NCBI GenBank assembly: GCA_035528035.1
Contig: DATKZI010000022.1
Coordinates: forward strand, 3,638 to 27,637
Reading direction: 5' to 3'
Source of the DNA: Candidatus Bathyarchaeia archaeon
GTDB taxonomy: Archaea; Asgardarchaeota; Heimdallarchaeia; JABLTI01
DNA: 24,000 nucleotides
Shown here: positions 875-23,318 of the stretch, one piece after another
Layout: every line of letters begins with the position of its first letter
Position numbering within the stretch: position 1 is the first letter of the stretch
Made by a program: the position numbers and the translations under genes
The notes under the pieces: model-generated
Seen by the model: only the letters and a program-made list of their open reading frames with translations
Database searches by the model: none
Told to the model about the DNA's origin: nothing

Positions 875-1387
875 TTAACCAATATCTTTTATTATAAGTT
901 CTATCATTTTTGTAAGTTGTTCAGGGGAATTATTCGTCGTATCGATTTCTGTAATAAGATTTGGAGGCAAATTTTCTTGGAGTTTTATAAGACATTCATC
1001 CATAATTTCAGCTTGTACGTTCTCTTCAATTTTGTGTGAAGGATAATCTCGAGATGATTGTAAACGAAGACGAAGAATATGAGGATTACAACGTAGAATA
1101 ATTGCATGTTTAATAAATTCTTTTGGAACGATTTCAGCCGTATGACCTTCAATAATTAACAAATGATTCAAACGGATAATTTCATCTGTAAGATAAGAAA
1201 TAAGAAATTCTTCATCAATTATAACACTCTCTCGAGAATGGTCATAACCATAATAAAATCCATTTTTAAGAACTAATTCATTTATATTTAAAACAGTATA
1301 TCCTTTACTCTCGAGTAATTTACTTATTGTAGTTTTGCCAACTCCAGGGGTACCAGAAAGGATAAGCACTCGAGATAAACTAGACAT
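875..1387 (-). CDS. Fap7/AK6-type nucleoside kinase (small-subunit ribosome maturation factor homolog)
   Basis: P-loop LILSGTPGVGKTTISKLL, EGH motif, ILRCNPHILRLRL...KIEENVQAEI...EIDTT. The layout is collinear with archaeal Fap7 / human AK6 as I recall them, and the size (170 aa) fits. Confidence 0.85.
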   Translation of the reverse strand: MSSLSRVLILSGTPGVGKTTISKLLESKGYTVLNINELVLKNGFYYGYDHSRESVIIDEEFLISYLTDEIIRLNHLLIIEGHTAEIVPKEFIKHAIILRCNPHILRLRLQSSRDYPSHKIEENVQAEIMDECLIKLQENLPPNLITEIDTTNNSPEQLTKMIELIIKDIG

Positions 1388-1456: not shown

Positions 1457-1810
1457 TTAGGAACCAAGCTCAATTGACAAGAGATCATCACTGTTTTCAA
1501 TCACTTGTACTGCTTCAGATGGAGCAACAACAGTATATTGAGATTCATTAGCTAATGATGATTTTTTGAAAAATTTCTTTGATTCCGGTAATCCTCGATT
1601 CCATTTAAAGAATTCAAGTCCTATGAAATTATCAAAATCGATTACTAACATAGTTTGTTTAATTAATTCTGCTTCTTCTTCAGGAGTCAATCCATTTTCC
1701 AATATGAGGACCCTGTTTTGTCTAACTAATCGAATGATCATTTTGATTTTTTCAAAAGTGGTAAGCTTATTAGTAACATTCTTGGTAATAAAATCAATAT
1801 AGTACTTCAT
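1457..1810 (-). CDS. DUF2073-like small archaeal protein (uncharacterized partner of the upstream GTPase)
   Basis: 117 aa with ...VLILENGLTPEEEAELIKQTMLVIDFDNFIGLEF..., which matches my recollection of the DUF2073 signature (GLTPEEE..LI..TM..ID..F.GIE). It starts 10 nt after the GTPase stop and has GGTGAG 4 nt upstream of its ATG, so it is likely co-transcribed. Confidence 0.65.
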   Translation of the reverse strand: MKYYIDFITKNVTNKLTTFEKIKMIIRLVRQNRVLILENGLTPEEEAELIKQTMLVIDFDNFIGLEFFKWNRGLPESKKFFKKSSLANESQYTVVAPSEAVQVIENSDDLLSIELGS

Positions 1811-1820
1811 TTATCTCACC

Positions 1821-2429
1821 TCAAGAATTCGCTATAATAGCATCATATAATGCTTCAATATTATCCCCTGTTTTAGCAGAGACTGAAACAATAGTTTGAT
1901 CACTAAATGTTTGTCGAACTAACTCAGGTCGTGAATCAGGCAAATCAATTTTATTAGCAATAATTATTATTGGAATTTTTTGCAATTGTAAATTACCAAT
2001 AATAGTTAAATTAACTTGTTCAAAGGGTGTTTTAGTTGAATCAAGAATAACTAAAGCTACATCAACCTGATCAATCATTTTAATTGCCTCAAGGATCCCT
2101 TTAGTAGCCTCTTTTGCTCGTTGGATAGCTTCAGCTTCAGTAAGACCAAATTTAACAAAATTGCGATAATCAACAGTTGAAGCAATTCCAGGCATATCCA
2201 TTAATGTAAAATTTAATTCATAGCCATCACGTTTAAGGTTAGCATTTTCAAGCTTGATAACTTTACGGGTTTCATGAGGAATTTCAGAAACAGGTCCTAA
2301 ATCATCATAACCAAGATCATTAGCTATTCGATTTGCTAATGTAGTTTTACCGGCATTGACTTCACCATAGAAAGCAAGCCTAATATTTTTCTTCTTCTTC
2401 CGAGAAATGATTTTGGAAATCCAACTCAT
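1821..2429 (-). CDS. TRAFAC-class small GTPase (Era/EngB/HSR1-like)
   Basis: G1 GEVNAGKT, G3 DMPG, G4 NKID, G5 SAK. GGAGG lies about 14 nt upstream of the ATG, and a TATA-like TATATTTAAT sits just beyond it. Confidence 0.85.
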   Translation of the reverse strand: MSWISKIISRKKKKNIRLAFYGEVNAGKTTLANRIANDLGYDDLGPVSEIPHETRKVIKLENANLKRDGYELNFTLMDMPGIASTVDYRNFVKFGLTEAEAIQRAKEATKGILEAIKMIDQVDVALVILDSTKTPFEQVNLTIIGNLQLQKIPIIIIANKIDLPDSRPELVRQTFSDQTIVSVSAKTGDNIEALYDAIIANS

Positions 2430-2539: not shown

Positions 2540-2875
2540 ATTCACAAAAAAAATGTATACATATGAACACTGTATACACATTAAAACAAGAAATACATGT
2601 AATTTTGTGAATTAATCAGATAATTATTTTAAAAAAATAGGTTAATTTAGATAAAAAATTTATTTTATTTATAAATAGAAGGTAAAATATAGTCTGTTTT
2701 TAATATTAATTTTAAAACATATTCTATTCACAAAGTATAGTTCTATTTTTGTGAAATAAGAGTAAAATAGCACAATATTTGTGAATAAAGAAGGATTTTA
2801 AGACCTTATTTTTAAAAAATAAGGATTTTATTCAAATATTTTGTGAATTCACAACTTTTCTGTGAATATGTGAAT
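2540..2875. repeat. Cluster of TGTGAAT/ATTCACA heptamers (8 exact copies plus variants); candidate protein-binding array
   Basis: Exact copies at 2540-2546(-), 2606-2612(+), 2726-2732(-), 2780-2786(+), 2842-2848(+), 2847-2853(-), 2861-2867(+) and 2869-2875(+). Copies 2842-2848 and 2847-2853 together form the palindrome TGTGAATTCACA. One variant, TGTGAAA, lies at 2750-2756. Most copies extend to TTTGTGAAT. Two TGTATACA palindromes sit at 2554-2561 and 2571-2578. Confidence 0.6.
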
Positions 2876-2905
2876 AAAAAGACGATTTTAGAAGTTTATA
2901 ATGAT

Positions 2906-2926
2906 ATTCCAGTAGAAATAAAGGGG
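2906..2926 (+). repeat. ORB-like box 1
   Basis: ATTCCAGTAGAAATAAAGGGG. It matches box 3 at 19 of 21 positions and resembles the archaeal ORB consensus (TTCCAGTGGAAAC..GGGG) including the G-string. Confidence 0.65.
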
Positions 2927-3055
2927 TTTTTAAAAATGAAATTAACATTTTGTTAAAAAATACACTAGTTTTTATGTCAGTTTTATTATCTAATATTTTT
3001 TTAGATCACCTGTTCACAACTATACACAATATTGTATTTTAAGAAATGACTAACT

Positions 3056-3076
3056 CCCCTCTATTTCCAATGGAGA
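3056..3076 (-). repeat. ORB-like box 2 (inverted)
   Basis: The reverse complement reads TCTCCATTGGAAATAGAGGGG. This is close to the Aeropyrum-type ORB CTCCACAGGAAACGGAGGGGT as I recall it. Confidence 0.65.
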
Positions 3077-3211
3077 TGCTATGTTCATGTAACGTGTAAA
3101 CTCTTAGAATAATAATAATAATAAAAACTCTTGTTTGGTACTTAAGATACTATCTAATATATTAATATTTTGTCTATTTAAATAACAAATTTATAAAGTA
3201 AAAAAGTTAAT

Positions 3212-3232
3212 ATTCCAATAGAAATAAACGGG
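3212..3232 (+). repeat. ORB-like box 3
   Basis: ATTCCAATAGAAATAAACGGG. Its flanks also resemble those of box 1 (..AGTT..AAT upstream, ..GAA(A)TTAA.. downstream). Confidence 0.65.
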
Positions 3233-3358
3233 TCTTATATAGAATTAATTCAATCCCAGGATTAAATGAAAAAAAGCAATCAATAAGATCACAAAAAAGT
3301 AGGTTTTAAAATATTATCTGTATAATATCTAGATAATAAAATCAAATTTATATTAACT

Positions 3359-3379
3359 TACCTATATTTCTATTGGAGA
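3359..3379 (-). repeat. ORB-like box 4 (inverted, degenerate G-string)
   Basis: The reverse complement reads TCTCCAATAGAAATATAGGTA. It shares the exact 13-mer TCCAATAGAAATA with box 3 (3214-3226 vs 3365-3377). It overlaps the TTG at 3373 that opens the downstream ORF. Confidence 0.5.
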
Positions 3380-3414
3380 TAAAACAGTTGAGCAAAAGAA
3401 AAGTTAAGGTTGAA

Positions 3415-3825
3415 ATGAGTGATGACCAAGATAATAAAATCACAATTACTTTTGAAGGTAAATTAGATGAAAAAAGCCTCAAAACCTTAATTCTATCAGC
3501 TAATAATATTTTAGGAAAAGAAGTAGCAACGTTAGGAGATAGCCCTGATGTTTCAGTTGAAGAAGCGTTAGATATGTCCTTAATAGAAAGAGTAAAATTA
3601 CTTATATCAACAGCACATGGAATGGGATCTTGGTTTACAACAAATGATTTATGTGACTCATATCATGATGTATTTTCAGCTATACTAAAAATCACTACAG
3701 CAAGCACATATTTGGCAAGATTATCTGATGAAGGATTCTTGGAGCGAAGTGGGTCCAGGAATGAAAGAAAATTCCAGATTGTTCGAGAATATCGTGAAAA
3801 ATTACCTAAAATAATTACTCAGTAA
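3415..3825 (+). CDS. Small protein with a C-terminal winged-helix-like domain, function unknown
   Basis: The ORF track starts it at TTG 3373. I prefer the in-frame ATG at 3415, which is preceded by AAGGTTGA (MSDDQDNKITITFEG...). The C-terminus ...ITTASTYLARLSDEGFLERSGSRNERKFQIV looks like a wH recognition helix plus wing. Confidence 0.6.
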   Translation: MSDDQDNKITITFEGKLDEKSLKTLILSANNILGKEVATLGDSPDVSVEEALDMSLIERVKLLISTAHGMGSWFTTNDLCDSYHDVFSAILKITTASTYLARLSDEGFLERSGSRNERKFQIVREYREKLPKIITQ

Positions 3826-4135
3826 AATATTCAAAAGAAGCAATATCCTGAGCAATTGAAATTTCATTTTTAAATAATTCACCTAATAATTGGAAAATTT
3901 CTTTGCCAAGATCAGAAAGAAATACTATACCAGGAGCATTACCTATTAAACCTGATTTACTAAATTCTTGGAGATATCTCGAGATAGTTATATTAGAAAA
4001 ACGGGTCCAGTTGATTAATTCATTACGTGTGCAAAAATCATTATTCGAGATTAAAGTAAAAATAAGACGAGCACTATACGTACTAAAACAATTTCGAGTA
4101 ATATTTCCTAGTATTAAATCTTGAATCATGATCAT
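3815..4135 (-). CDS. Small winged-helix-turn-helix DNA-binding protein
   Basis: 106 aa. ...CTRNELINWTRFSNITISRYLQEFSKSGLIGNAPGIVFLSDLGKEIF... is a typical ArsR/MarR-like wHTH pattern. Its 3' end overlaps the convergent gene 3415-3825 by 11 nt. Confidence 0.6.
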   Translation of the reverse strand: MIMIQDLILGNITRNCFSTYSARLIFTLISNNDFCTRNELINWTRFSNITISRYLQEFSKSGLIGNAPGIVFLSDLGKEIFQLLGELFKNEISIAQDIASFEYFTE

Positions 4136-13212: not shown

Positions 13213-13366
13213 CTTGTCTATTGTAGTTTTCATTTCATATCTCCCTAAAATAAAAACAAGTGGAACAAAGTTTGGAAAACTTCTGCTTGTAACACTTCTC
13301 CTTTTCTAGTTGACAATAGGGATAAAGTTTCATATTAAAAACAAACAAATTTTTCATTAGATAAAA

Positions 13367-13472
13367 TGGTGCTGGAGAGGGGATTCGAACCCCCGAGTGC
13401 GGAAACACAGTGGTTCCCTCGTTCCTACGAGAATTTCGAGACCACCGCCATACCAGGCTAGGCTACTCCAGC
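13367..13472 (-). tRNA. tRNA-Ser (anticodon CGA) with a 19-nt intron at 37/38 (13416-13434), CCA encoded
   Basis: Hand-folded on the minus strand: GCTGGAG/CTCCAGC acceptor, anticodon stem GTGGT/ACCAC, 15-nt variable arm, T arm GGGGG-TTCGAAT-CCCCT. The BHB is CTCG|AAA|TTC-TCGTAG-GAA|CGAG|GGA, i.e. two 3-nt bulges separated by the 4-bp helix CTCG/CGAG. Confidence 0.85.
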
Positions 13473-13704
13473 AAAATTTCTTTGGGATGTAATCATTGAA
13501 TAGTACCTTTAATTAGATTAAATTAAAACTATTTCATCACTTTTTACTTATAACAATAATTTTTATTGATTAACAAATAAATTTATGCTATTCTATTTTA
13601 AAAAATGTTATTTAGAAAAAAAAGCCCTCTAAAATCATAATGAAACACAAAACTTTAAAACAAAAGAGTACAGAAAAAGTAAATGCCAATGACCAATCAT
13701 TGAT

Positions 13705-13841
13705 GCGGAGGTAGCCCAGCCAGGTCAAAGGCGGAGGACTTAAGATCTCTGATCTTGTCGGTCAGAAACTCTCTAGGGCCAGTATAATAGGAAATCCTCT
13801 CCCGCAGGGGTTCGTGTGTTCAAATCGCGCCCTCCGCACCA
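13705..13841 (+). tRNA. tRNA-Leu (anticodon UAA) with a 49-nt intron at 37/38 (13745-13793), CCA encoded
   Basis: GCGGAGG/CCTCCGC acceptor, anticodon stem GAGGA/TCCTC with loop CTTAAG^A, variable arm TCCCGCAGGGGTTC, T arm GTGTG-TTCAAAT-CGCGC. A 4-bp CTTA/TAGG helix (one G-U) flanked by bulges AGA and AAA can be drawn. The inner helix is weak. Confidence 0.85.
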
Positions 13842-13878
13842 AATTTTTTATCAAATTTATTAGCTTGAAAAGGAAATT

Positions 13879-14085
13879 TTATTCTTTTAACATCCACCGA
13901 TATTTTTTATCTTCGCCCATAAAAAGCATGAAACCACATTCAGAACACTCTAAAATAATTACTTGATAATTTTTTTCTTTCTCAAAAAAAGTTTTTAGCT
14001 CACTTTTCTTTCCACATGCTTGGCATTTCTCTCCCCAGATTTTCTTAGCATTTTTTTCCAATTCTTGCTCTTTTTGTGATATCAC
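13879..14085 (-). CDS. Small zinc-ribbon protein
   Basis: 68 aa with CQACG...(25 aa)...CSECG, i.e. two CxxC knuckles, and no other recognisable domain. Confidence 0.55.
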   Translation of the reverse strand: MISQKEQELEKNAKKIWGEKCQACGKKSELKTFFEKEKNYQVIILECSECGFMLFMGEDKKYRWMLKE

Positions 14086-14232
14086 TACTTACTCATCCTA
14101 ATCTTGTATTTGCTTATTGATAGATATTTTTGTCTTAAAAAGCTTAATTTTCTGCTTTTTTTTCTTATTTTTTTTCTTTTAATAGTCTAATCAAAGTATC
14201 CCTTTGATAATTATATAATGGAGACTCAATAA

Positions 14233-14373
14233 ATGAAAAAACTATCCCCTAAAATCGTGACCTTGGCTATAATGATACTATCCTTCGTTGCCGCAGGCAG
14301 CATCGGAATTAGACATGCAATCGCCCCACCCGGTGGAGGCGTTGGAGAAGAGTTAACTCCTACAGGTGGATGA
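14233..14373 (+). CDS. 46-codon ORF: putative small membrane or secreted peptide
   Basis: Below the ORF-track size cutoff. ATG is preceded by GGAG 9 nt upstream and by TATA-like ATTATATAA. Product: MKKLSPKIVTLAIMILSFVAAGSIGIRHAIAPPGGGVGEELTPTGG (basic N-terminus, hydrophobic helix, Gly/Pro tail). It is clearly more GC-rich than the flanking spacer. Confidence 0.4.
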   Translation: MKKLSPKIVTLAIMILSFVAAGSIGIRHAIAPPGGGVGEELTPTGG

Positions 14374-14547
14374 ATTAGTCCCCTTACCCTTCTTCTTTTC
14401 TATATTTTTTCTTTTCAATTTCTAATAATTTAACTTTACCTTACATTGAAATGGTATATTTTAGGAAAATTTTATCTAATACAAAAATTATTGTAAGCTA
14501 ATTTTCTAATAAAAAAAGATTAGATCATTTATTTGTAGGTGTATAAA

Positions 14548-17299: not shown

Positions 17300-17677
17300 T
17301 TAAATTAATTCAGCTAACTGATTGCAAGATTTCTTTGAGAGTAGTAGAATTAATCCTAGGTTTGCATCTGTCTTGGCAAGAATTGTTAAAACAGCTCTCG
17401 AGGCAACATCAAGAAGGATAATATAGCCATGGTCGCCTAGAATTGAAATATTACTGATTTGGCCTTTCCCTAATTCATTAGTAACTCTTTCAGAAACAGA
17501 GGAAATTGAGGCTGTCATTGCTGAGATCAAATCTTCATCTGCTGAGCTATCTAAAGCGGAATCAATTGGTAAACCTTGTGCAGTAACAAGTAAGCACCCT
17601 TCAACTCCATCATGACCTGCTTTTAATTTGGTCAAGATATTATGAATTTGTTCTACTCGAGAGGACATGATTAACAC
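17300..17677 (-). CDS. Roadblock/LC7 (MglB-like) domain protein
   Basis: ...GVEGCLLVTAQGLPIDS....ISAMTASISSVSERVTNELGKGQISNISILGDHGYIILLDV..RAVLTILAKTDANLGLI is a typical Roadblock/LC7 pattern. Start is either GTG 17677 or ATG 17668. Its stop codon directly abuts the stop of the convergent wH gene. Confidence 0.8.
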   Translation of the reverse strand: MLIMSSRVEQIHNILTKLKAGHDGVEGCLLVTAQGLPIDSALDSSADEDLISAMTASISSVSERVTNELGKGQISNISILGDHGYIILLDVASRAVLTILAKTDANLGLILLLSKKSCNQLAELI

Positions 17678-17987: not shown

Positions 17988-19766
17988 TTGCAAACTAAAA
18001 CGAAAAAAATACTTTGGGTAATAATGATTCTTTCAAGTATTATCCTTGGAGAAAGTTTAGCGGCAGGTGCAATGCCAACTTCAATTCCAAAAAATGAAGT
18101 AACACCAAATCTATTCCATATAGGGCAATTCAACATTAGTATAGTTGTTTCAAAAACAGCTTTTAGTCCTAATGAATTTACAGTCAAGGAAAGTGCTACT
18201 GTAAATGTAACCATCGAAAGCATAGATATTGATCATACATTTTATATTCCAGAGTACGAACTTAATGAAACCATCGCTGCAAATACAACCTATAGTTTTG
18301 TATTTGAGGCAGATATCTTAGGCGAATTTACCTTTACCTCAATGAACTCTACAGGTGAAGGGACAATGATTGTTACAGATCCCTATGTTCCTGATCTTCC
18401 TCGTCCTGAAGATATCAATATAATTCTTGATTATAGTCATCATGATAATTTAACATTGATGTATGAAAAATATGAGACTATCTTTAACTGGTCTAGAAAC
18501 GATAATGATTTTGACTTACTAATAAATGAAAATACCTTCCTAACAGATGAAATTATGAAAGATCTTGAGGTTTTGATACTTCTTGAACCAAATGAGAATT
18601 TAACAGTAAACGAAATCCCGGTGATTAAAAAATTCCTTAATAATGGTGGGAGCTTAATTATTGGTGGTTCACCGGAAACAGCTTTTACAAATGTCTATGA
18701 AATTACAGAGCAATTTGGTTTTACATTTACAAATAGTTCAGCTAGATATATTAATGCAACAATTGTTGGAAGTCCAGTTGGTGAAACAAATACTTTAGGA
18801 GAATTCACAGTATCTGATTTTGCTGATCATCCAATAATTTCTGAGAATCAATATGTGCCGTTAACTGATCAAATAATTTCAAAGATGAAATATACAGGTA
18901 CACTATTGACATTTAATGCTACTTGGGCTGCAGAACGACTTGTAAATAATAACTTAACAGATACCGGCAAAATCATTGATTGTTATACATTAGCAACCGG
19001 TAATGAAACAATATTCGCTGATGCAAATGGTGATACAATAGTTAGTGTAAATGAAACTATTGGTGCTGAAAATACTTTCATAGTTGCAGCTGAATCTGCT
19101 TATAATAGTAGAGTGTTTGCTATAGGTAGTGCTGATCTCTTTAACGAAACCATGATTGGACGAAATCCTGAGAATTTAATATTATATCAACGAGCATTAC
19201 AATGGGTAGCAAAAATGTATGCTATTCTTCAAAGTACTGAATATACTCTAGGTTCTTATGAAGTTTCCAGAAATGATATTATTAATACATCAATTATTAT
19301 AAAAGCTCAAAATAATACAGTTACTGATTCCATAACAGTTTCAATACGAGTATGGCGAAGTTCACGAATAGAGGCAGAATTTGTTTATACTCCAATAAAT
19401 GCTTCTTACTTTGAAGGACAAATCGATACAACAAATATTACTAAGGGAACAGTTTCAATAGATGCAGTGGCTCATAAACGAGGGTATGGATATAATGTTA
19501 CAACTCCCTATTATGTAGAAATTAATCCTCGAGAACCAGGAGAATATTATGTTGCTATACCATACATTATTACTTATGTAATAACCATCATCGTTGGTAT
19601 TGGAGCGATGTCATTATTCTTTATACGTGTTCTTAAGACTCCAAAAACTGTTCGTGAATCAGAAACAACATCTACTGCTGACGATGAAATTGAAGAAGAT
19701 GAAGATACTGTTGATTTAGATGAATATGAAAACGAAGAAGAATCAGAAACACCAGAAGAGGAATAA
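17988..19766 (+). CDS. Type I membrane surface protein: signal peptide, cupredoxin-like domain without Cu ligands, DUF4350/GldG-like domain, C-terminal TM and acidic tail
   Basis: TTG start with GAGGTG 7 nt upstream. Signal peptide MQTKTKKILWVIMILSSIILGESLAAGA. FSPNEFTVKESATVNVTIESIDIDHTFYIPE...GEFTFTS...GTMIV looks like a cupredoxin fold, but no Cys or Met ligands are visible. DLEVLILLEPNENLTVNEIPVIKKFLNNGGSLIIGG is GldG/DUF4350-like. I counted 20 N-x-S/T sequons. TM YYVAIPYIITYVITIIVGIGAMSLFFI is followed by a D/E-rich tail. Confidence 0.75.
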   Translation: MQTKTKKILWVIMILSSIILGESLAAGAMPTSIPKNEVTPNLFHIGQFNISIVVSKTAFSPNEFTVKESATVNVTIESIDIDHTFYIPEYELNETIAANTTYSFVFEADILGEFTFTSMNSTGEGTMIVTDPYVPDLPRPEDINIILDYSHHDNLTLMYEKYETIFNWSRNDNDFDLLINENTFLTDEIMKDLEVLILLEPNENLTVNEIPVIKKFLNNGGSLIIGGSPETAFTNVYEITEQFGFTFTNSSARYINATIVGSPVGETNTLGEFTVSDFADHPIISENQYVPLTDQIISKMKYTGTLLTFNATWAAERLVNNNLTDTGKIIDCYTLATGNETIFADANGDTIVSVNETIGAENTFIVAAESAYNSRVFAIGSADLFNETMIGRNPENLILYQRALQWVAKMYAILQSTEYTLGSYEVSRNDIINTSIIIKAQNNTVTDSITVSIRVWRSSRIEAEFVYTPINASYFEGQIDTTNITKGTVSIDAVAHKRGYGYNVTTPYYVEINPREPGEYYVAIPYIITYVITIIVGIGAMSLFFIRVLKTPKTVRESETTSTADDEIEEDEDTVDLDEYENEEESETPEEE

Positions 19767-23212: not shown

Positions 23213-23318
23213 AGGCCTGTAGTATAGTTAGGATAAAACGCTCGGCTTCGGAAGAGCTTTCAAGTGAAACTCTGAAGTAACCGAGAGACCGGCGGTTCGA
23301 ATCCGTCCAGGCCTGCCA
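23213..23318 (+). tRNA. tRNA-Arg (anticodon UCG) with a 28-nt intron at 37/38 (23252-23279), CCA encoded
   Basis: AGGCCTG/CAGGCCT acceptor, anticodon stem CTCGG/CCGAG, T arm GGCGG-TTCGAAT-CCGTC, G-CCA. Textbook BHB: CTTC|GGA|AGAG-(13 nt)-CTCT|GAAG|TAA. The D stem has one A:A mismatch. Confidence 0.8.

Follow-up and report, generated by a model that had tools for sequence, protein, structure and literature searches.

The DNA analysed here (hereafter the window) is a stretch of 24 kb that forms part of a 90-kb metagenome contig, and between positions 2430 and 3387 it contains a gap with four boxes of the type known as archaeal origin recognition boxes (ORBs), the sites bound by the initiator Orc1/Cdc6. 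We consider it likely that this gap is an oriC1-type chromosomal replication origin of a Heimdall-group Asgard archaeon, with firing and Orc1 binding as predictions from the DNA. The assignment is based on the ORB motif and its non-random occurrence, on the footprint left in nine related genomes, on a DNA-only scan of metagenome contigs and on a neighbourhood shared by orc1 and a small gene that we call p145; it is also based on the clustering of the boxes, on the oapA/oapB context and on the gap being the longest A+T-rich one of the window. The locus is unusual in being uncoupled from orc1, in having a conserved small winged-helix neighbour and in carrying a second hexamer motif that is shared with Thermoproteota. 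Among known archaea, those of the Heimdall group of Asgard are the nearest relatives of eukaryotes, and our literature search found no description of their replication origins. The window offers a sequence-defined candidate for one, with four polar ORBs, a constrained central zone of 135 nt, a second motif and a small, putatively DNA-binding neighbour. The original prediction had placed here an origin with four ORB-like boxes around two almost pure A/T unwinding spacers. The presence of ORB-type boxes and of an Orc1/Cdc6-type origin is upheld by the match to published ORBs, the positional conservation and the linkage to orc1, whereas neither the unwinding role of those two spacers nor their A/T purity was borne out.

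Four ORB-type boxes and their conservation

Direct reading of the window confirmed the boxes predicted earlier in position, sequence, orientation and spacing (the scores are those of the weight matrix described below):

2906..2926, + strand: ORB box 1, ATTCCAGTAGAAATAAAGGGG, mini-ORB core plus G-string, the G-string pointing right (score 32.0)
3056..3076, - strand: ORB box 2, TCTCCATTGGAAATAGAGGGG when read as the reverse complement, G-string leftward and TCCA (winged-helix) side toward spacer 2 (score 32.6)
3212..3232, + strand: ORB box 3, ATTCCAATAGAAATAAACGGG, CGGG G-string rightward and TCCA side toward spacer 2 (score 27.3)
3359..3379, - strand: ORB box 4, TCTCCAATAGAAATATAGGTA when read as the reverse complement, a mini-ORB (score 18.5)

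The boxes lie within 474 nt, alternate in orientation (+ - + -) and are spaced by 150, 156 and 147 nt from start to start. Boxes 1 and 3 are identical at 19 of 21 positions, boxes 3 and 4 have the 13-mer TCCAATAGAAATA in common, and a tandem periodicity of about 305 nt joins the box 1/2 unit to the box 3/4 unit. The gap that contains them, 958 nt long, is the longest stretch of the window without an open reading frame (ORF) or RNA gene, as had been claimed; a larger ORF-poor region at 13213-14538 contains a small ORF and two tRNA genes that probably have introns.

Allowing up to three mismatches, the pattern TCCANTRGAAATANAGGGG occurred at exactly four sites in the 24 kb, which are the four boxes. 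Shuffled versions of the window contained a mean of 0.16 matches and none of 100 reached four, so that the boxes are not due to chance. A position weight matrix derived from 97 related boxes gave the four boxes scores of 18.5-32.6, and no other site of the window scored more than 13.1.

Published ORBs and mini-ORBs are defined by a TTCC...GAA core, to which full ORBs add a G-string. The consensus of the 97 distinct boxes from all loci collected was TTyTCCAGTGGAAAT-nnA-GGGGT. In three of the related loci described below (L004, L005 and L009), the orthologue of box 1 reads TTCCAGTGGAAATTAAGGGG, and its 13-nt core is identical to that of P. furiosus ORB1, a published gel-shift substrate bound by Pyrococcus Cdc6/Orc1 (ORB strand, TTCCAGTGGAAATGAAACTCTGGGGGG). 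Similarly, the clade consensus TTCCAGTGGAAAT is the core of the published P. furiosus ORB1 and ORB2. This core identity, together with the matrix scores, sustains the earlier match to the archaeal ORB. The claim that the match extends to the G-string holds for boxes 1-3, which have both core and G-string, but not for box 4, which has the core only and GGTA in place of GGGG. There is also a difference in spacing, since the G-string begins 8 nt after GAAAT in Pyrococcus and 3 nt after it here.

The arrangement resembles that of oriC1-type origins (Sulfolobus oriC1, Pyrococcus oriC and haloarchaeal oriC1), which have polar ORBs with a TTCCAGTGGAAA core and a G-string. The likeness extends to the inverted boxes, which enclose an A+T-rich zone (about 135 nt in the window, 130 bp in S. 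islandicus), to a long intergenic site, to one box that overlaps the promoter of a flanking gene and, for haloarchaeal oriC1, to an oapA gene for a GTP-binding protein on one side. In contrast to those origins, the locus has no adjacent orc1/cdc6, its four boxes alternate strictly, as against the same-direction pairs per side ascribed to Aeropyrum, and it carries an additional array of TGTGAA hexamers.

The gap is also conserved as a unit. Nine genomes of the clade to which the window belongs showed the same gene order, with flanking proteins 50-92% identical and a gap whose length was 916-1031 nt in the six genomes measured; on one clade contig, JAHLVY010000001.1 of GCA_019058195.1, the locus is at about 784 kb. 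All nine genomes, which are labelled Heimdallarchaeota, kept the four boxes in the same order, orientation and intergenic place, with diverged DNA in between. In an alignment of six genomes the mean column identity was 0.83-0.95 for boxes 1-4 and 0.68-0.71, with many gaps, for the spacers outside conserved blocks; box 1 had 20 of 25 columns invariant, and box 4 (21 of 27) was among the best-conserved elements. Conserved boxes within diverged spacers are the pattern expected of protein-binding sites under selection. The distance between boxes 2 and 3 (157-161 nt in the nine genomes) is the most constant of the array, the other two ranging from 148 to 184 nt and, for boxes 3 and 4, from 104 to 199 nt.

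Short inverted repeats in A+T-rich DNA, with units repeated at about 305 nt, could also be those of a dispersed repeat of the type of miniature inverted-repeat transposable elements, or of the origin of an integrated plasmid or virus. Boxes scoring at least 18 numbered, however, 132 in origin zones and zero in the 345 kb of flanks outside them across 41 loci, so that the scattered copies considered in the original prediction as an argument against an origin did not appear. The window itself has no other strong copy, its synteny is fixed and of a housekeeping kind (archaeosine TGT, Lsm, ribosomal proteins, enolase), it has no genes for an integrase or a mobile element, and a scan of viral contigs for the paired-box pattern gave zero matches. 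We give such an origin of the boxes almost no credence, the box counts in the window, in the 345-kb flanks and in the viral contigs having led us to reject it. Because of the identity of the core, the linkage to orc1 presented below, the clustering in origin zones and the lack of viral matches, we conclude from the sequence evidence that the box is an Orc1/Cdc6-associated origin motif.

Gene neighbourhood and linkage to orc1

The gene that begins directly after box 4 is as follows:

3388..3825, + strand: p145 gene, 145 aa, its TTG start at 3388 fixed by homologues

Distant homologues of this gene, which lies to the right of the boxes, recur in loci found through DNA alone. We scanned metagenome contigs of the JGI for two inverted boxes 120-150 nt apart, and obtained 30 loci with a G+C content of 30-55% (loci are designated here by L numbers). 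In about 20 of these, the box pair had an Orc1/Cdc6 gene directly beside it; the five such genes tested contained Pfam Cdc6_C and Cdc6_lid, and the other calls were made by tblastn. In 17 of the 30, a distant homologue of p145 (28-40% identity) was on the other side of the pair. Where both genes were present, orc1 and the p145-family gene pointed away from each other with the boxes between them. The converse approach, in which six members of the p145 family were chosen by protein similarity alone and ORBs were disregarded, gave a similar picture: in all six, an Orc1/Cdc6 gene faced the p145-family gene across a box-filled gap, by genes of PolD subunits. These six came from a complete Bathyarchaeota genome, a Nitrososphaerales metagenome-assembled genome (MAG), a 'Thermoproteota' MAG and three unlabelled contigs (p145-family genes at L042 5001-5420, L043 5001-5408, L046 2578-2964, L047 4001-4456, L048 4001-4408 and L049 4001-4390). 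In the complete Bathyarchaeota genome and in Nitrososphaerales-type contigs, the p145 family is the divergent partner of orc1 inside a PolD-DP1 / orc1 / DP2 island. The orc1-p145 gap of the former genome, CP070649.1, falls within 1,438,482-1,448,901. In L048 (2416-4000), a CorA transporter gene lies between an ORB (+) at 2612 and an ORB (-) at 3759, that is, in a spacer toward which the G-strings point; it separates an intact orc1-proximal (-,+) pair from the p145-proximal pair. On these comparisons, the window appears to hold the Heimdall-clade form of a module of which orc1 is normally a part; here p145 remains with the ORBs and orc1 is absent.

Given that a p145-family gene adjoins the boxes in most loci, that box 4 lies at the p145 promoter and that the p145 model ends in a winged helix of the regulator type, the boxes might be operators through which p145 regulates itself, their resemblance to ORBs being a coincidence. 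We regard this as quite improbable. The same boxes are beside orc1 in a group of loci without a p145-family gene nearby (L012, L013, L016 and L031), their core is identical to an experimentally bound Pyrococcus ORB, and they are polar and bear a G-string, which is in keeping with binding by the winged helix and initiator-specific motif (ISM) of Orc1 and not by a dimeric regulator. L012 (9483-9848), L013 (13076-13456) and their relatives have a G+C content of about 0.5; their origin is flanked by orc1 on one side and, on the other, by the gene of a Zn-ribbon protein that belongs to the Pfam family 'autoantigen p27'. Next comes a gene of 479 aa, and TGTGAA motifs are still present.

On the left, the place that orc1 usually takes beside the box array is occupied by oapA-oapB, which run away from it:

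1821..2429, - strand: OapA/ArvA-like small GTPase gene, divergent from the box array (Pfam MMR_HSR1 and GTP_EFTU; 80-92% identical in the clade)
1457..1810, - strand: OapB gene (Pfam PF09846 'origin-associated protein OapB', DUF2073, E = 1.6e-21)
875..1387, - strand: AAA_18 nucleotide-kinase-like gene, third gene of the oapA-oapB cluster

In haloarchaea a gene for a GTP-binding protein flanks the conserved oriC1, and the Haloferax oapABC/arvABC cluster is like the one found here in that a GTPase gene and then a DUF2073 (OapB) gene directly flank the origin. They differ in the third gene, which in Haloferax encodes a DUF2072 Zn-ribbon protein (OapC) and here an AAA_18 kinase. OapA was named for its position next to the origin, and the role demonstrated for OapA/ArvA is in vesicle formation and not in replication; we therefore took oapA and oapB as positional evidence only. 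ArvA has been reported in 8 of 183 Asgard genomes.

An Orc1/Cdc6 gene next to an ORB-type origin is typical, not universal. The origins of Thermococcus litoralis and T. sibiricus, at 453 and 349 kb from cdc6, are like the present locus in being an ORB cluster without a neighbouring cdc6; they belong to another phylum, and here the uncoupled state is common to a whole clade.

The central spacer and the case for an origin

The four boxes delimit three spacers, the second of which includes a conserved block:

2927..3055, no strand: spacer 1, between the inward G-strings of boxes 1 and 2; poorly conserved, with one TTCACA at 3013-3018
3077..3211, no strand: spacer 2, 135 nt, predicted duplex-unwinding and MCM-loading zone between the winged-helix sides of boxes 2 and 3
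3130..3185, no strand: 56-nt block in spacer 2, TTTGGTACTTAAGAT...CTAATATATTAAT..., 32 of 56 columns invariant in six genomes
3233..3358, no strand: spacer 3, from box 3 to box 4, of variable length (41 of 84 columns gapped)

Spacers 1 and 3, each bracketed by a +/- pair, are those which had been proposed as nearly pure A/T unwinding elements. We measured 80.6%, 81.5% and 81.0% A+T for spacers 1, 2 and 3, respectively, that is, about 81% and no higher than befits the rest of a gap with 79% (window, 68%). Moreover, unwinding in the two bracketed spacers is probably wrong, since the polarity of the boxes, the A+T content of relatives and the CorA insertion all favour the middle spacer. It has been published that the G-string is recognised by the AAA+ domain of Orc1, and that, where ORBs flank a duplex-unwinding element (DUE), the bound Orc1 molecules turn their winged-helix and lid sides toward one another across it, with the G-string away from the DUE. 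In the Haloarcula oriC1 that was found by experiment to be minimal, CCCCCC is the end of the left ORB and GGGGGGGG that of the right one, which would put both G-strings outside (our reading of the figure legend of that work); in S. islandicus oriC1, the ORB3-DUE-ORB2 core measures 130 bp. Boxes 2(-) and 3(+) are ORBs of opposite polarity that flank an A+T-rich element in this manner. In related loci, the spacer toward which the G-strings point was less A+T-rich than its flanks in 25-27 of 30 cases, and the (-)...(+) spacer was more A+T-rich than the neighbouring (+)...(-) spacer in nine of ten. On the basis of the published polarity, the constant 157-161 nt spacing, these A+T comparisons and the position of CorA in a G-inward spacer of L048, we believe it moderately likely that spacer 2 is the unwinding and helicase-loading zone, so that box 2(-), spacer 2 and box 3(+) would form the canonical core. 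Spacer 2 also contains the 60-mer of lowest stability in the box region (3151-3210), as well as the 56-nt block, which is nearly invariant in the clade (TGGTAYYTAAGAT ... TTAATATATTAATCTTT) and holds a perfect 12-nt palindrome, TTAATATATTAA, resembling a TATA element. Neither an RNA gene nor an RNA structure was supported: the only Rfam match in the gap was mir-471, with 26 bits against a gathering score of 80 bits, and RNAalifold on eight orthologues of the box 2-box 3 segment paired the inverted boxes only and found no covariation.

From the elements described, we infer the following mechanism, including Orc1 binding, spacer 2 as the DUE, a regulatory box 4 and a binder of TGTGAA. An Orc1/Cdc6 encoded elsewhere in the genome would bind the four polar ORBs as monomers, with its winged-helix domain contacting TCCA-N3-GGAAA and the ISM of its AAA+ domain contacting the G-string. 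Boxes 2(-) and 3(+) would turn the winged-helix sides to the 135 nt of spacer 2 (3077-3211), where two MCM hexamers would be loaded and the A+T-rich duplex would open, in a core that would mirror the ORB3-DUE-ORB2 segment (130 bp) of Sulfolobus oriC1. Boxes 1 and 4, on the outside, face the opposite way. Box 4 is preceded by a TATA-like TTTATATT (3347-3354) and followed by the TTG start of p145 at 3388, and it lies downstream of a 3' part of spacer 3 (3321-3353) that is conserved and promoter-like; by its position it may be an operator of the downstream gene, and it probably couples the expression of p145 to initiator occupancy. The TGTGAA array and the 56-nt block may be accessory protein-binding elements, for which p145 would be the most obvious candidate binder.

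Several observations weigh against an origin at this place. No Cdc6 domain is encoded in the window, tblastn gave no orc1/cdc6 match from about -10 to +21 kb in the clade, and an Orc1 homology search with a Bathyarchaeia-type query (L035) returned Bathyarchaeota-like proteins only and no Orc1 of the clade. To the right of the locus, the L3-L4-L23-L2 operon is on the minus strand and would be head-on to a rightward fork. At a resolution of 500 nt, GC skew in the window tracks the coding strand; third-codon-position skew is -0.08 to the left and +0.06 to the right of the locus, and across loci the left versus right comparison was inconsistent, with the expected sign in 9 of 20, and at this scale skew says little about an origin. 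No spacer stands out compositionally within the gap, and the assignment of the DUE therefore rests on relatives and on the published geometry; two of these relatives (L017 and L023) displayed only a G-inward pair at the threshold used.

Part of these observations would be accounted for by what is the main rival to an active origin, namely a relict or regulatory ORB array, in which a protein of the Orc1 family binds only to control the divergent promoters of p145 and oapA, the active origin having moved away with orc1. The missing orc1, which abuts the array in most other lineages, and the head-on ribosomal protein operon agree with it, as do the overlap of box 4 with the p145 promoter region and the gene insertion in L048, which shows that two box halves can be uncoupled. 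Some Orc1 paralogues are known to regulate transcription, for example Sulfolobus Orc1-2 (PMC9738581). A relict, however, would hardly have kept the complete (-)-spacer-(+) core with intact G-strings, a constant 157-161 nt and a 56-nt block in its middle, since this constraint exceeds what operators need for a single promoter 180-330 nt away, and the Thermococcus origins document that 349-453 kb may separate an origin from cdc6. We thus hold a relict array to be unlikely, and retain an oriC1-type origin as the preferred reading of the gap.

TGTGAA hexamers and the p145 family

Between the oapA gene and box 1, a second motif is present:

2540..2876, both strands: TGTGAA(T/A)/TTCACA array, nine hexamers, clade consensus TTTGTGAATA

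The array, which includes the palindrome GTGAATTCAC and the tandem TGTGAATATGTGAAT, holds 8 of the 12 TGTGAAT copies of the window and is conserved in the orthologues. When ORBs were masked in the origin zones of 23 loci of different lineages, TGTGAA/TTCACA was the most enriched 6-mer, with 125 copies in 19.8 kb of origin zones versus 106 in 204 kb of flanks (13.9-fold; Fisher p = 4e-75). It was carried by 21 of the 23 loci, often as tandem copies 8 nt apart, and clusters were also found at the origin zones of L005, L007, L008, L010, L012, L013, L015, L017, L023, L042, L046, L048 and L049. In Nitrososphaerales-type loci the hexamers are just upstream of the p145-family gene. Judged by this distribution, the array is a second conserved origin motif, and in the literature searched we found no description of TGTGAA clustering at ORB-type origins. 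Its link with p145 is imperfect, since L024 has a p145-like gene without TGTGAA and the L012 group has TGTGAA without a p145 gene nearby. As a rough division, p145 might be the protein that binds it, a protein of some other kind might be so equally well, and an Orc1 paralogue comes only slightly after these two as a possible binder.

In the structural model of p145 (pLDDT 77.5), an N-terminal beta-beta-alpha unit precedes a C-terminal winged helix, and the best folds in the PDB were regulators of the RosR/ArsR/PadR/MecI type, with a weak E of about 4e-3. The window protein matched no Pfam or NCBIfam family. That it is a stand-alone winged helix of Orc1 was not supported, as hhalign of the family against an Orc1 alignment gave a probability of 0.05%. 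We regarded a weak similarity to ribosomal protein eS1 in a sequence comparison with the PDB (E about 0.02) as spurious. A profile search yielded 498 relatives of about 130-150 aa, the few labelled ones being from Heimdall/Asgard, Bathyarchaeia, Nitrososphaerales and 'Thermoproteota'. The linkage of the family to ORBs is not universal, because a homologue in Methanocellaceae (L011) has neither ORBs nor replication genes around it.

A comparable situation has been described in Sulfolobus, in which UBP, a small protein that contacts MCM, binds ucm (ATTATACAAAAG), a conserved motif at the centre of the DUE (Dhanaraju et al. 2025, PMC12141716). UBP has 111 aa, is a saddle-shaped beta-hairpin protein and occurs only in Sulfolobales and Desulfurococcales; the paper explicitly raises the question of analogous origin proteins in other lineages (PMC12141716). 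Both systems have a conserved element other than an ORB midway between DUE-flanking ORBs, and short accessory motifs that recur at origins. Nevertheless, the sequence of ucm is neither TGTGAA nor the 56-nt block, and p145 would be a winged-helix protein whereas UBP is a beta-hairpin one, so that the correspondence of p145 and TGTGAA with UBP-ucm is an analogy of position only and not one of membership. We tentatively propose that the p145 family and the TGTGAA array constitute an undescribed accessory module of oriC1 in Heimdallarchaeia and Thermoproteota (Bathyarchaeia and Nitrososphaerales), analogous to UBP-ucm and retained in the Heimdall clade while the origin became uncoupled from orc1. 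That an uncharacterised, putative winged-helix family and TGTGAA accompany ORB clusters from Nitrososphaerales to Heimdallarchaeota may outweigh the origin call itself, as it bears on accessory origin proteins outside Sulfolobales, which is the question raised in PMC12141716.

The p145 gene is followed by another small gene:

3815..4135, - strand: p106 gene, 106 aa, convergent with p145 and overlapping its 3' end by 11 nt

The p106 protein is present in all clade loci with 58-74% identity and had no match in Pfam or the PDB. In Nitrososphaerales-type loci, a comparable small convergent gene comes after the p145-family gene, and in two cases it is TrmB-like.

The remaining content of the window is archaeal, with genes for ribosomal proteins L3, L4, L23, L2 and S10, archaeosine TGT, Lsm and enolase, and the nearest genomes are MAGs labelled Heimdallarchaeota or Promethearchaeati (Asgard). 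The labels given to near-identical proteins of the clade conflict (Bathyarchaeia, Zixibacteria, Thorarchaeota, Heimdallarchaeota and 'Asgard group'), and several of the public MAG labels are probably wrong. A Roadblock/LC7 protein is encoded at 17300-17677 (-) and a membrane protein of 592 aa, with weak IFT52-GIFT and OST48-like matches, at 17988-19766 (+); these domains are eukaryote-like signatures consistent with an Asgard contig. Finally, Rfam matches to tRNAs of 103-134 nt at 13370-13472 (-), 13705-13838 (+) and 23213-23315 (+), which ARAGORN overlooked, are probably intron-containing archaeal tRNA genes.

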